A stretch of DNA of 64,000 nt from Vezdaea acicularis (lineage: Eukaryota), in assembly GCA_026025075.1 (NCBI GenBank), contig JAPEUI010000090.1, positions 1-64,000 on the forward strand. The letters run 5' to 3'. The notes under the pieces are model-generated. The model saw only the letters and a program-made list of their open reading frames with translations. It was not told where the DNA came from and did not search any database. Position 1 is the first letter of the stretch; every line of letters begins with the position of its first letter. The position numbers and the translations under genes are program-made. Of the stretch, positions 7,085 through 11,393 are shown in pieces.

Positions 7085-9667
7085 CTAACGGATGACTTCA
7101 TGGCCTTCTTTATCAAATCCCTCCAGAGCTTCGAGGATGTCGCTGCCGCCGAGAAGGCCTTTGCTGCCGCCGATTGACTTTCGGTGGTCCGCCCATACCT
7201 CGTGGAACTTGATGCTTTGGTCGCTTCCTGCAACAACGAGGCAGCCTTCCTCTGCGGTCCTGCTCAGCCATGGTCCACCCTCGCTTCGACTCTTCCGAGT
7301 CATGGTCTCGTTGGGTCCTCCGGGATAAGGGACTGCGTAAAGAGCTCTTAGAGAATTGGTCCAAGGGATAGCAACAACCTGCTGGCAATCTGGCCATGAA
7401 AAGACAGCAATGCGGAACCGGTGTTCCGGCTGTGCATAGCCAAAGGTAGCACAGATCTCTCGCCTCGTGGTGCTCCAAAGAAGACTAGTGACCTGAGCAC
7501 ATACAGTGATAGTCGCGAGACAAGCTCCCGAGTCTGTATGAAAGAAATGAATACAGCGATCATTAGATCCGCCACCAGTAGCAATGAGACCACGCTGCCA
7601 AGGGCAAAAGGCTATAGCCTTTACTGCAGCTCCATGAATCCATTTGTGTTTCTCTTGGCCCATAGTGATAGCGGCTATGCGGCCACGGCCGGGAACGAGG
7701 TAATGCCGGCGAAAGCCTTCTGGCCCGTTTCTATGAATTTCGTCTGGTCCGTATTCAGCACTAAGAGCCTCGAGTCGCCATATCTCAAGGGAAGATACTT
7801 CAAATAGACAACAGGCGTTATCATTGCCACCAGTGGCAAACAGGCTACCATCAGGAGACCAAGCAATACCGCATATTTGTTGAGAGTGAACGGAAATCCG
7901 GGCGAGCATCTTCATGGCACCGTGCCATTCCTCGTTCTCCCGGTCTTCCTCATCGGGCCATTCGACGACATAGTAGTAGACGTTTCCGACTTCATCGCCG
8001 ACTAGGAGTTCTTCCGTGGCAACCAATTTTGTGCTCGTCTCATTGCGCTGAGAGAGTCTGATAGTGGTAGTAGGCCTCCAAGCAAGGCATGCAATTGGAT
8101 GCGGCTGCTGTGCTTCAAAACGAGGCTCCGGCTCGAACATGCTCCATAATGTGACCTGCCCATCCCCTCGACCAGATGCTAAAATAGCTCTTCTGCCCTG
8201 GCTAGACGAGAAGGTGAGGGAAGTGAGATAAGCACTGCTGTTTGTAGCAGATGTCATCGGGCGAACTTCGTATGCTTCAGACCAGATGTACACCCTGTTG
8301 CCCAGGCCAACGGCTAGGGAATGGGTCATTGGACAATATGCTAGCAGTGAACAATAGAAGTCGTCTCGAAGCAAAGGAGCGTCAAGAACTGTAGTCATTG
8401 TGAGCTTGGGATCGTAGATGGGAGGAGTCCATATTTATCTGAAAGGCGTGGCAGGCACGTTCCGCTCTCTACGCTTGGGTACTGCTGTCATGTCCCCTAT
8501 TGGCATTGTCAGAATGAATTTCAATTTAGAGGATGCTTTGAGTTGTTTACTGGTAGGTGAATCTTCCTTCATCCATTCGCTATCCCGCCATACAGTCGGC
8601 TCGTAAGTTCTCTTATGTAGCCCCGCACCTTTTATAGGGACCCATTTCCTTCCGTTCATGCTAGATTCGGCCTGCTGGTTGCTCCTGAAATTGAGGACTT
8701 TGTTTGTTTGATCGAATTCGAACGCAACAGCAAGTCTCTGCTCGTGCTTTTGCAGATCTTCCAAAGATGTTTTACCTTCCAAGAAACGGGCATTGTACAT
8801 AGGGGCATTGGTGCCGCTATTCAGCATGCCTCCTTGACCGTTCGAAATGCCAGCAGGAGGTCCAGCATTAATGGCTCCGCCCACGTTCCAGACCGCACCA
8901 ACACTAGCCTGGCGATTGAGGTCTGCAGAATTATTTCTAATTCCTAGGACTCCGGTAGCAGTAGCCCCAGTACTCAAAACTTGTGGTCTCCTCGTTAATA
9001 CCGGTGATCGAGGGCGAGTCATCCCAGAAATGTAGGCTTGCTCTCGTTCTCTGCTAACATTTCGAGGAGTAGGCCCAAACGGATCGGGACCAGAATCTCG
9101 ATTTCTAGTGATTCGCTCGGAACTAGTAAGCTCATCCACCGGTGTGCTGACCTGAAAGGTCCCTATCGACGAGTTGGGCGAGCGTCGTTTAGGTATGAAA
9201 CGATCAAGTGAAGATGAGACGCGTGGCCGCTTCGAAAAAGCCCGACCCCGTAGCTTACTTGGAGATAAAGGAGCGTCTTTGTAAATTGTAAAAGGAGATA
9301 CTTTGACACCGGGAAATGCATTAATAGTAAGCTCAGTGGAGTCCACTACCACTTCACGTGGTGGGGAAGGGAGTCCTAAGGAGAATGGCCTCTTCAAGCT
9401 GACTTTTCGCGCACTTGGGAACTTCCCATTAATCTCACTCGATACAGGAGGAGCAAAGGAGTGGCTCCTCTTAGGCGGCATAGGGGATGACTCAGGTGAG
9501 GGAAGGTAAGAATCCTCGGAGAAGGACTTTTTGGCCATAGAACGGGGTCTTGAGCGATAGAGCTCCAGAGAAGGAGTAGAAGTATCCCCTGAGGTATCCT
9601 CTGTGGGCCTGGTATCTGTTGTGTATTGTGACATCTTGCAAATCGAGCTTGAACGCGGTAGAAGCAT
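7085..9667 (-). CDS. AMA1: Cdc20/Fizzy-family APC/C activator, Ama1-like (probable introns 8497-8550 GT-AG and 8391-8438 AT-AC)
   Basis: C-box DRFIPKR, VPATPFR|VLDAPLLRDDFY, WD40 repeats (HSQQICG, ATGGNDN, HGAAVKAIAFCPWQRGLIATGGGSNDR), C-terminal IR tail (EVIR*). Ama1 subfamily assignment is inferred from divergence and insertions. Confidence 0.85.
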
Positions 9668-10224
9668 GTAATCCTGTTCTTAAGCTCGAACGAGATATCC
9701 TGGCCCAGGAGTCTGAGTATCCAGCTAGACCTAAGTGACGATAGTCAAATGGAACTTCTGTTACAGCCTCGTACACATAGAGATGGAAAAAGCCCAAATT
9801 ACGGACACGGTTCAAGGTATCCAAGACTGAGCGCGATAATTGACGCCTGATGTACAGCTTCACCGATTGAAGGCCAAGAGCTATCTGATGTATTGAATAC
9901 ATAGCATAGCTACTTTAAGGGAAAGATATGATACCTTCACTTGATCATATGCACGAAAGATGATCATATCCCACCAGTCTAGGTTGTCTTGGAGTAGGGG
10001 CGTCTATCATATGAGAGGCGCAAAGAATATAAAAATGACTTAGAAGAGGTTACAGTGACCAAGCAAGATGATGTTAGGGAAGCTTGATGCCCTAAAAAAG
10101 AACCTTTGTGATAGGGGTGGGGAGCTCCCTCTAGATATAAAGTGGGCGAAGGCTTTGAAGGCAAGGGCCCACAAGTGAACATCAAACCCAGCCAAGGCAG
10201 AAAGTAGTACATCTTCCGCCGGAG

Positions 10225-11393
10225 ATGGCAAGCGTACGTTCATAACATCGTCAAATTAAGAAAGCGAAATGCTGCTAATGGAAGTTAGCATGGAGTATCA
10301 CGACCTGCCACCACTGAAAAGAGGACAGAGCAGGCTCGGCAGAAAGAGCTCTCGAAGATCGTAGAATATACGAACTTGGTCGACTCGGTTCAGGATAAGG
10401 TACTCTATAAGTTCCACCAATATTTCCAAGAATCGTAGCTGAAACCAATGAGCAAAGATCGCAGCGAAGGAGCTCACGGCCGAGACCTTTGCCTTAACCT
10501 CCAAGCTCCTCTCCCTCAATCCGGAGTTTTACACTATTTGGAACCATCGCCGCATAGTCCTACTCAACGCGCTGCTTCCTTCCGCCTCCAATCCCCTCTC
10601 CCTCCTCAGTTCCGACCTCCAATTCCTCATCCCGCTTCTCCGTCAGTTCCCAAAATGCTACTGGATCTGGAAGTACCGGCTCTGGCTGCTTCAGAGCAGT
10701 ACCCGCCTGCTACGTGCCACACAATCGCGTGAGCTATGGAAAGCCGAGCTCGCTTTATGCGGTCAGATGCTGGCGCGCGATAGTAGGAACTTCCACGGTT
10801 GGGGATACAGAAGGCATGTAGTACGGGCACTGGAGACCGAAGAGCTCGGGGGTAAGAGCATGGCTGAGGAAGAATTCGCGTACACGACGAAGATGACAGG
10901 GACGAATCTAAGCAACTTCTCGGCATGGCATGCAAGGGGAACTTTGCTACCTAGGGTTCTAAATGAGAGGGGAGCGACTTTACCAGAACGGATTGATTTC
11001 TACAGAACAGAGCAAGATAGACTGCATGACGCGCTGTTTACGGACCCGTACGATTCGAGCTTATGGGCATATCACGCGACACTTTTTGATTCATTAGACA
11101 ACATAATTGGTGACGTTAAGAAAAATATCTTGCATAACATCCGATGTGACATTCTAGAACAAGAGTTAGATTTTATCGTGGACTTATTGGAGGAGGCAAA
11201 TGATTGCAAGTGGATTTATGAAGCCGCCATACGGTTCTCACTAATACATAAGCGGGCTTTAGTGGACGGAGAGAAGAATAATTCAGAGCATGTGCCACAA
11301 TGGCTCTTGAAGCTACAGGAGCTTGATCGATTACGGGGTGACCGGTGGAAAGACTGGACCAAAGAGTTGAAGGACGAGGGACTTTTGCAATAG
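10225..11393 (+). CDS. BET4: Rab geranylgeranyltransferase (type II) alpha subunit (3 exons; 9-nt first coding exon)
   Basis: MAS|HGVSR start, NPEFYTIWNHRR, FPKCYWIW, DSRNFHGWGYRR, NLSNFSAWHAR, TDPYDSSLW (PPTA repeats). Confidence 0.9.

Follow-up and report, generated by a model that had tools for sequence, protein, structure and literature searches.

This study investigated a minus-strand gene in a 64,000-nucleotide stretch of Vezdaea acicularis DNA (contig JAPEUI010000090.1; hereafter, the window) and a short segment inside that gene with AT and AC ends. The predicted product carries features of the Cdc20/Cdh1/Ama1 family, namely a CDC20/Fizzy-type WD40 propeller, a C-box (DR[FY]IP), and a C-terminal IR. 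In a comparison based on identity and match names, its best matches (approximately 60-65% identity) bear the JGI name AMA1, and Bcama1 and proteins labeled 'related to ... AMA1' are among the related matches. The parts of the gene were assigned as follows.

8551..9634, minus strand: exon 1 of the AMA1-like gene, the N-terminal low-complexity part, placed by the open frame 8435..9679 (minus), the exon lengths, and the frame check
9191..9205, minus strand: DRFIP, which we take to be the C-box, the APC/C-binding motif of Cdc20-family activators (regex match)
8497..8550, minus strand: intron 1, canonical GTAAAC...CAATAG, 54 nt, with a CTGAC branch-like site; the frame is open if it is retained
8439..8496, minus strand: mini-exon, 58 nt, coding for ..DMTAVPKRRERNVPATPF and the two first bases of the R codon; its ..R.VP..PF motif is kept in orthologues
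8391..8438, minus strand: predicted AT-AC intron, 48 nt, phase 2, 5' ATAAAT...CTCAC (branch)...GACTAC 3', supported by AT-AC ends at the same site in orthologues
8435..8437, minus strand: TAA, the sole in-frame stop of this intron, formed by donor positions +2 to +4
8400..8404, minus strand: probable branch site CTCAC, with CTRAY-like counterparts in orthologous introns
7085..8390, minus strand: exon 3, comprising the third base of the R codon, VLDAP, the WD40 propeller, and EVIR, with the stop codon at 7087-7085 (Pfam PF24807 and orthologue alignment)

The start codon at 9634-9632 was our choice, and an earlier in-frame ATG lies within the open frame, which extends to 9679. Exon 1 ends after a W..EW motif, as in the orthologue models, and the acceptor of intron 1 yields a 58-nt mini-exon that matches the orthologue series of 49, 52, 55, and 58 nt. 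The exon 3 product matched the Pfam family PF24807 (CDC20/Fizzy WD40) with an E-value of 2.1e-60 and 204.9 bits (cut-off, 200), and it was aligned with the orthologues over residues 1-434.

Reading frame across the 48-nt segment

On the minus strand, the segment 8438->8391 (ATAAAT...GACTAC) is a multiple of three in length and lies in the context cct ttc ag|ATAAATATGG...CAATGACTAC|a gtt ctt gac gct cct. Two open reading frames of the same frame meet here, one at 8435..9679 ending in ...NVPATPFR and one at 7085..8434 starting with IWTPPIYDPKLTMTT-VLDAPLLRDDFY, and a single TAA (8437-8435) stands between them. The minus-strand letters and the list of open reading frames confirmed the original prediction that this TAA is the only in-frame stop in the segment. 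Excising 8438-8391 joins ...NVPATPF-R to VLDAPLLRDDFY. When the exons were joined by a script, with 8438-8391 and the canonical upstream intron 8550-8497 removed, the result was an open frame of 815 codons with the C-box DRFIP at residue 144, PFRVLDAP at residue 379, and the terminal IR (..EVIR). The claim that only removal of the 48-nt segment restores the family motif was likewise supported, as far as sequence comparison can decide, by the PFRVLDAP that appears after excision and by intronless orthologues, which show the same junction. The branch-like GCTCAC that had been noted near the end of the segment is present at 8405-8400, which would make the base at 8401, 10 nt short of the 3' end, the branch A.

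Two other ways of cutting the segment were considered and rejected. A parse shifted by one base (TA...CA) would yield the identical mRNA; its ends were inconsistent across loci, and AT...AC was the sole parse with identical ends in all 29 distinct orthologous introns. Using the GT at +5/+6 as a donor together with an AG located 2 nt beyond the AC broke the frame, as judged by reading the orthologue sequences.

The orthologous site in other fungi

The site was compared across 80 metagenomic orthologue loci and the window, 81 in total, of which 78 could be classified. Alignment of the junction revealed AT-AC ends at the same codon position in 43 of the 78 rows, GT-AG ends in 14 rows from sister lineages, AT-AG ends in two (L002 and L003), and AT-AA ends in one (L005); the remaining 18 rows were intronless with exactly the predicted junction (for example, ..AVPATPFR|VLDAP in L014 and L022). 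The full intron was available for 42 of the AT-AC rows, which represent 29 distinct sequences with the window included, and the contig of the other row (L004) holds the AC end only. The recurrence of AT-AC ends at one position in more than half of the classifiable rows indicates that the pattern is more than chance. The intron lies in phase 2, within the R/K codon of PF[RK]|VLDAP, behind a mini-exon of 49-58 nt.

The AT-AC form was found in clades containing Dothideomycetes, Lecanoromycetes, and Leotiomycetes, and the GT-AG form was found in Sordariomycetes, the labels of the metagenomic loci being derived only from the names of best matches and from a rapid tree that included 25 named proteins. 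On this alignment, the window intron is orthologous to the AT-AC introns of the three former clades. The well-supported branches force at least six separate changes at the site, and conversion to GT-AG occurred at least two times, in a gene that showed no decay. The original prediction held that the intron had evolved independently in this genome. That claim did not survive the comparison; the intron appears to be an old one common to these clades, and it was most likely inherited from their early ancestor rather than being a device that arose in this genome.

The same comparison bears on three explanations in which no AT-AC intron exists. An assembly or sequencing error that masks true GT and AG ends would need one error precisely at the first base of the segment and a second, separate one precisely at the last, and independent assemblies show the same two bases in 28 further distinct orthologous introns; we regarded such an error as having a negligible probability. 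A second explanation is that a canonical GT-AG intron, AAC|GTGCCT...CCCAAG|CTC, is used and the AT-AC parse is illusory.

8405..8458, minus strand: rejected canonical alternative GTGCCT...CCCAAG, 54 nt, read from the sequence

This alternative has canonical ends and a length that is a multiple of three. However, its use would remove VPATPFR, a stretch that orthologues conserve right up to the junction, and would leave in the protein LTMTT, to which nothing corresponds in the orthologues examined. Its donor has no G at +5, its acceptor is not preceded by a CTRAY site, and a comparable in-frame canonical pair was found in none of the 29 orthologous AT-AC loci. We rejected 8458-8405 as an intron and consider its use very improbable.

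The third explanation dispenses with an intron, and the TAA would then be a real premature stop that is either read through or repaired through A-to-I editing as in FgAMA1, or else the gene would be a pseudogene. PMC10776026 documents restorative editing of AMA1 stops in Sordariomycetes, and in-frame TAGs at W positions were found in several related loci of the Sordariomycetes clade (L073 and L019/L071); the window carries no such TAG. Nevertheless, the stop in the window is TAA, and restoring W from it would need two edits; the Fusarium study used TAA as the uneditable allele (PMC10776026). Retention would also insert 16 residues between PFR and VLDAP that have no counterpart in the orthologues examined, the segment bears a full set of intron signals, and the flanking frames are otherwise intact over the 815 codons. 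A gene without the intron is thus highly improbable, and the AT-AC segment is most likely an ordinary intron whose removal is required for the protein.

Traces of the intron were also visible in published protein models. Among 315 cluster-representative proteins, 61 read ..T|VLDAP, an in-frame trace of the AC end. In a look for transcript-derived proteins spanning an AT-AC junction, the proteins with a contiguous PF[RK]VLDAP that were at least 85% identical to one of the loci all matched intronless loci, with P0052, which is 87% identical to L010, as the one ambiguous exception. The manually curated Bcama1 model of Botrytis cinerea B05.10 (P0266) reads ..SLPVAPFK|VLDAP, and the model of strain BcDW1 (P0270), with both flanks identical to those of Bcama1, reads ..CRTFQ-ISFTF..LIFST|VLDAP. 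In both frames the exon ends in ..TTTCAA and is followed by an I codon (ATH), V being preceded by a T codon (ACN). These features provide an independent check and point to a genomic AT...AC in Botrytis, a deduction from two protein models rather than from DNA, and the curated model splices the deduced segment at the predicted junction, PFK|VLDAP. Bcama1 is an orthologue approximately 60% identical to the relatives searched, and it has the same mini-exon and the same junction across the AT...AC segment; it differs in belonging to another species and in having a K codon where the window has R.

The mini-exon that precedes the intron, marked by the conserved ..R.VP..PF[RK], was missing in 25 of 42 NCBI-named gene models, as would be expected from the earlier claim that standard gene predictors mis-model this gene. 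Models forced to canonical sites drop the mini-exon, and the combination of an AT-AC intron and a 49-58-nt exon before it defeats standard predictors. With this motif missing from so many models, comparative studies of fungal APC/C activators use wrong proteins.

Splice signals and the spliceosome

The 29 distinct AT-AC introns shared signals at their ends. All of them had A or G at +3, T at +6, and YAC or AAC at the 3' end; G at +5 was found in 28; and a CTRAY-like branch site lay 10-11 nt from the 3' end in 26. The interiors were unconserved, with a median longest shared word of 4 nt, and conservation was confined to the ends and the branch site. The window donor, ATAAAT, fits the major-type ATRNGT at +2 (T), +3 (A), and +6 (T) and has A rather than G at +5. 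It is the weakest of the 29 donors because it is the only one without G at +5.

The signals of the minor spliceosome were absent from this set. None of the 29 introns started with ATATC, as the U12 donor ATATCCTT does, and none contained the TCCTTAAC-like U12 branch motif CCTT[AG]A[CT] (CCTTRAY). In PMC2846911, U12 splicing and its snRNAs (U11, U12, U4atac, and U6atac) are reported absent from Ascomycota. The reading of the donor as a U2-type donor with A at +1, and not a U12 ATATCC, therefore appears sound. The AMA1 intron shares the terminal dinucleotides with U12-type AT-AC introns and nothing of their donor or branch signals; that its ends descend from a U12-type intron, taken over by the major spliceosome upon loss of the minor one, is highly improbable. 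Taken together, these findings strongly suggest that 8438->8391 is a genuine spliceosomal intron of the gene for an AMA1-type activator, a sexual-stage APC/C activator of the Cdc20 family, and that it is removed with its AT-AC ends by the major U2-dependent spliceosome.

The established splicing mechanism suggests how such an intron would be processed. U1 and U6 would read the donor as an ordinary GTRNGT with A at +1, and U2 would pair at the CTRAY branch site, 10 nt short of the 3' end. At exon ligation, the first-base A would pair with the last-base C in place of the usual G-G contact. If only one end changed, the second step would be expected to suffer, which makes the AT-AC pair hard to leave; A-C pairing would thus keep both odd ends together. 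The AT-AG loci (L002 and L003) and the AT-AA locus (L005) count against strict A-C pairing. Either these fungi tolerate exceptions to the pairing rule, or the genes concerned are poorly spliced.

Natural AT-AC introns processed by the major spliceosome are rare. The AMA1 intron resembles the known cases, that of yeast RPL30 and the rare ones catalogued in animals and plants, in its AT and AC ends; apart from the A at +1 (followed by TRNGT), the donor is of the ordinary major type, and the branch site is likewise ordinary. The substitution of a first-base A and a last-base C for the G-G contact is covered by PMC11585973 and PMC1557818, the former of which describes the A-C contact of the RPL30 intron and cites Parker and Siliciano 1993. 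AT-AC is listed among the rare non-canonical splice sites of Fusarium graminearum in PMC3577648. The AMA1 intron differs from the known U2-type cases in lying in a meiosis-linked regulator, at one position across several fungal classes and behind a mini-exon, and in having relatives that include extant AT-AG, AT-AA, and GT-AG forms.

Retention of the intron and the sexual stage

The original prediction proposed that the stop built into the donor makes the intron a splicing switch. The TAA in the window was verified; its role as a conserved device was not borne out, the stop appearing to be a by-product of ATAA donor variants. The donors ATACGT, ATATGT, ATAGGT, and ATGAGT contain no stop. Retention would truncate the protein in 28 of the 29 distinct AT-AC introns, simply because an intron seldom stays open.

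In the proposed switch, the AT-AC intron persists owing to its poor splicing or to its need for a sexual-stage factor, and vegetative transcripts would end at the donor stop and yield no WD40 activator. AMA1 would thereby be confined to the sexual stage in a third, independent way, following the post-transcriptional gating of the gene in two other ascomycete lineages. In budding yeast, AMA1 depends on Mer1 for the splicing of a non-consensus intron, as described in PMC11585973. In Fusarium graminearum, FgAMA1 (PSC33) carries a premature TAG that requires obligatory A-to-I editing, and six independent origins of this stop in Sordariomycetes are reported (PMC10776026 and PMC10962958). The Sordariomycetes are also the clade with GT-AG in place of AT-AC, and three of its loci carry TAG where their relatives have W. 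The retention of AT-AC in at least three classes, the unusually weak donor in the window, and the truncation expected in nearly all of the introns are further points in favor of a switch.

Several findings oppose this interpretation. The introns' interiors have almost nothing in common, and the Mer1 enhancer AYACCCUY was found in none of the 45 distinct introns at the site; accordingly, no conserved regulator-binding site is visible. The intron is absent from 18 of the 78 rows, and the gene has not decayed despite the repeated changes at the site and the GT-AG conversions. Almost any intron truncates a protein when retained, and the cost of a single-end change accounts for both odd ends without any function. 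In Botrytis, moreover, the Bcama1 transcript level already rises in apothecial disks, according to the expression results in PMC5821092. On balance, a switch of this kind seems unlikely, and it is equally doubtful that the AT-AC ends were kept for hundreds of millions of years as a slow or factor-dependent step holding back the AMA1 protein outside the sexual stage.

The yeast AMA1 intron lies at a different position. The Mer1-activated splicing of SPO70/AMA1 in Saccharomyces cerevisiae resembles the present case in the gene family, in a non-consensus 5' splice site, and in an intron whose removal is needed for the protein, but the introns at the window's site differ in lacking the Mer1 enhancer. 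FgAMA1 editing concerns the same gene and a genomic in-frame stop that requires handling at the RNA level before a full-length activator is made; its stop is a TAG at a W codon of the coding sequence and is edited, whereas the stop in the window is an intronic TAA that would leave with the intron. The window stop lacks the hallmark of restorative editing, being TAA rather than TAG at W and lying in a segment absent from the orthologues examined.

Searching of the full-text literature found no description of an AT-AC intron in AMA1 or its orthologues; where AT-AC was matched together with Pezizomycotina or dermatophytes, the text mostly referred to domain strings of polyketide synthases (KS-AT-ACP). 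If the switch were nevertheless real, the same problem would have been solved three times: budding yeast would rely on splicing that depends on Mer1; Dothideomycetes, Lecanoromycetes, Leotiomycetes, and the lineage of the window would rely on an AT-AC intron; and Sordariomycetes would rely on an edited TAG, which would have let the intron relax to GT-AG. AMA1 is restrained at the RNA level in yeast by splicing and in Fusarium by editing, and the AT-AC intron may be another such brake. Fixed at a single position across several fungal classes, the AT-AC intron offers a natural experiment on how the first base of an intron pairs with its last. Its intermediates, AT-AG and AT-AA, are found in living relatives, and it was converted to GT-AG at least twice.

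Structure of the AMA1-like gene

The minus-strand DNA at the site reads ...gcc acg cct ttc ag/ATAAATATGGACTCCTCCCATCTACGATCCCAAGCTCACAATGACTAC/a gtt ctt gac gct cct..., with the 48-nt AT-AC segment between the slashes, which mark splice junctions throughout. In the ORF listing, an upstream stop-to-stop frame (8435..9679, minus strand; C-terminal end ...RRERNVPATPFR) and a downstream one (7085..8434, minus strand; start IWTPPIYDPKLTMTT-VLDAPLLRDDFY) lie in the same frame and are parted by a lone TAA (8437-8435).

8550->8497, minus strand: canonical intron GTAAAC...CAATAG, 54 nt, just 5' of the mini-exon
8496->8439, minus strand: mini-exon, 58 nt, left between the canonical and AT-AC introns
8438->8391, minus strand: AT-AC segment, 48 nt
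7085..8434, minus strand: frame with the CDC20/Fizzy WD40 propeller (PF24807, E 2.1e-60, 204.9 bits, cut-off 200)

The three exons were joined by script into an 815-codon open frame; the spliced protein has DRFIP, the C-box, at residue 144, reads PFRVLDAP at residue 379, and ends in IR. Every detail of the segment that the original prediction had read from the sequence proved correct in the DNA, the frames, and the joined-exon translation. The closest proteins, approximately 64-65% identical, belong to Thelocarpon, Trichoglossum, and Piccolia; AMA1 is the family name given by several sources among the protein matches. In the raw ORF calls of the protein search, T very often directly preceded VLDAP (MTT/, MST/, SNT/, PST/VLDAP), as expected when an intron with a 3'-terminal AC is read in frame into an exon whose first base is A or G.

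The upstream canonical intron is open in frame (SKQLKASSKLKFILTMPI), and its retention would add 18 residues without truncation. The adjoining ORF on the opposite strand (10455-11393, plus strand) contains four protein prenyltransferase alpha-subunit repeats (PF01239, E 1.4e-31). A collected Chaenotheca AMA1-like protein (P0007) is labelled "Rab geranylgeranyltransferase", a label that probably stems from an error of naming or fusion within this prenyltransferase-containing neighbourhood.

The splice site in orthologous loci

An alignment of 38 propeller sequences was used to scan a metagenome collection and gave 592 pattern matches, of which 288 encoded a relative. The best 80 of these 288, together with the window, formed a set of 81 rows; three loci (L028, L060, and L064) ended before the site, leaving 78 rows, whose states were assigned by reading the flanks and by regular expressions. 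The alignment of the junction across orthologues, which the original prediction had proposed as a check, supported the predicted AT-AC intron: AT-AC was the commonest state, and the intronless loci had the junction predicted by splicing at AT/AC. Every intron at the site lay in phase 2 of the R/K codon.

Table. State of the site in 78 classified rows
AT-AC: 43 (42 whole introns, 29 distinct sequences including the window; L004 has only the AC end on its contig)
GT-AG: 14 (13 distinct)
AT-AG: 2 (L002, L003)
AT-AA: 1 (L005)
No intron: 18 (PF[RK] directly joined to VL[DE]AP)

The 29 distinct AT-AC introns were 46-53 nt long. Their donors were ATATGT (12), ATAAGT (6), ATACGT (5), ATGAGT (3), ATAGGT (2), and ATAAAT (1, the window only), and their 3'-terminal triplets were CAC (20), TAC (8), and AAC (1). 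A CTRAY-like branch site lay 10-11 nt before the 3' end in 26 of the 29, whereas the interiors were unrelated (median longest shared word, 4 nt; longer only between near-identical contigs). Constant ends and branch spacing around freely varying interiors point to a working intron that uses its AT and AC ends; the comparison showed the position, ends, signals, and intronless junction of this predicted intron. By its sequence, it is a U2-type AT-AC intron, a known kind.

A U12-type identity was also considered and rejected. Neither the U12 donor ATATC nor the U12-like branch CCTTRAY occurred in any of the 29 distinct introns, in agreement with the original reading of the donor as U2 rather than U12, and Ascomycota are reported to be without U12 splicing in a passage of PMC2846911. 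From established mechanism, the major spliceosome would read the donor as GTRNGT bearing A at +1, and U2 would base-pair with the branch site. When the exons are ligated, the first-position A and last-position C would form the non-Watson-Crick contact usually made by G and G, a contact described in part of PMC11585973, which cites Parker and Siliciano 1993 and the yeast RPL30 AT-AC intron.

The same-site introns of L002, L003, and L005 lay directly 5' of VLDAP (match starts 303, 1230, and 2501), with ATAAGT donors and 3' ends CAG (L002, L003) or CAA (L005). These loci were closely akin to both GT-AG (L007, L009) and AT-AC loci (L004, L008, L010) and appear to be extant intermediates between GT-AG and AT-AC.

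Phylogenetic history and database gene models

A quick, unrooted maximum-likelihood tree of the propeller (81 rows, 67 different) was built, together with a second tree to which 25 named proteins were added; the quick tree and best-hit names supplied the taxon labels of the metagenomic loci. Taken together, the two trees put AT-AC introns on either side of the deepest well-supported split. They occurred in clades with Saccharata, Aplosporella, and Zopfia (Dothideomycetes; the top named matches of L038 were Pleosporales, among them Alternaria and Exserohilum), with Xylographa, Hypocenomyce, Letrouitia, and Caloplaca (Lecanoromycetes), and with Chlorociboria, Clarireedia, Cadophora, and powdery mildews (Leotiomycetes). 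The window was isolated, near Thelocarpon, Trichoglossum, and Piccolia. A single group of twelve GT-AG rows adjoined Leotiomycetes; since the named proteins closest to its member L061 were from Chaetomiaceae, then Xylariales and Hypocreales, this group was assigned to Sordariomycetes. The second GT-AG group, the pair L007 and L009, was nested within Leotiomycetes beside the AT-AG and AT-AA loci, of which L002 grouped with Stipitochalara.

The tree required at least 12 state changes, against a shuffled-label mean of 31.3 (0 of 200 shuffles as low); the intronless state required 8, at least 6 of them forced by starred branches. Sordariomycetes are the sister of Leotiomycetes. On the simplest reading that follows, the AT-AC state would be old, conversion to GT-AG would have occurred at least twice, once apparently through AT-AG, and the intron would have been lost many times. 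Loss in the Cadophora-like lineage (L006/L078) looks recent, because the collected protein P0025, which retains an AC-end trace (..MLLMPST/VLDAP), is 91% identical to intronless L078.

Table. Junction in database proteins
42 NCBI-named gene models from three protein searches
PF[RK]/VLDAP: 14
Without the mini-exon (W..EW exon joined to [FILMV]LDAP or to some other incorrect partner): 25
Starting further downstream: 3
All 315 collected proteins
..T/VLDAP: 61
..R/VLDAP without PF (AG-end trace): 21
Proper junction: 75
Wrong first residue: 29
Otherwise odd: 6
Uninformative: 123

The models without the mini-exon bear out the expectation that gene predictors would mis-model the intron. The usual error took as acceptor the AG 2 nt beyond the AC (..AC/AG TT..), which puts I, L, F, or M in place of V. 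As raw counts over related loci, 27 of the 29 distinct AT-AC loci, the window (8390-8389) included, had A as the first exon base after AC, versus 7 of 13 GT-AG introns; this A creates the canonical AG 2 nt downstream (..AC/AG T..), whose use by the spliceosome would shift the frame of the product.

The manually curated Botrytis cinerea B05.10 model Bcama1 reads ..EPRSLPVAPFK/VLDAP, and the BcDW1 model reads ..SSCRTFQISFTF..FLIFST/VLDAP, with both flanks identical; part of PMC5821092 mentions manually curated genome annotations for Botrytis. The two readings of the mini-exon give its last bases as ..TTTCAA, and the next codon, I (ATH), with T (ACN) before V, gives AT...AC in the genome. The curated model, with bases so deduced from two protein models, removes the AT...AC segment exactly at the proposed junction, which provides indirect, transcript-like support for AT-AC splicing.

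The AT-AC intron is already implicit in this curated reference annotation at least. A full-text literature search of incomplete coverage found no published description of it in AMA1 orthologues. Apparently new are how widely it is conserved, the arrangement with a mini-exon before it, the occurrence of natural AT-AG and AT-AA intermediates, and the extent of AMA1 mis-annotation.

The intron as a possible splicing switch

Stage-dependent removal of the intron would have precedents in AMA1 control: portions of PMC11585973 and PMC10776026 report that yeast AMA1 splicing needs Mer1 and that Fusarium FgAMA1 (PSC33) requires A-to-I editing of a premature TAG. The GT-AG clade is, strikingly, the clade that has this editing gate, and in its loci L073 and L019/L071 TAG replaces the second W of EWPERW. 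Nevertheless, no conserved intronic element was found among the introns at the site, and the Mer1 enhancer occurred in 0 of 45 distinct introns, so the AT-AC intron does not qualify as Mer1-type; nor does the window's gene qualify as an edited-stop gene. The built-in stop, put forward originally as a special feature, did not hold up as one: it is confined to ATAA donor variants, and retention would truncate the protein in 28 of 29 distinct AT-AC introns, as expected for any intron. The intron has also been repeatedly lost or normalised, and the Bcama1 transcript is already regulated, being raised in apothecial disks according to part of PMC5821092. Retention of both odd ends can be explained without function, because changing one end only should impair the second step, and the pair would persist as a trap. 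The sequence evidence thus does not favour a dedicated switch device, and we consider a switch role for the intron unlikely.

The in-frame TAGs at L073:2095-2097, L019:1160-1162, and L071:926-928 fit the restorative A-to-I editing site of FgAMA1/PSC33 orthologues reported in the relevant part of PMC10776026, which gives six independent origins of the premature TAG within Sordariomycetes, and are a candidate equivalent site. In-frame TAGs also stand at conserved positions in the Dothideomycete clade, at L064:1039-1041 (W343 in window protein numbering) and L069:2793-2795 and 2967-2969 (Q95 and W155); these may be stops that are edited in fungi other than Sordariomycetes, or may mark decaying genes.
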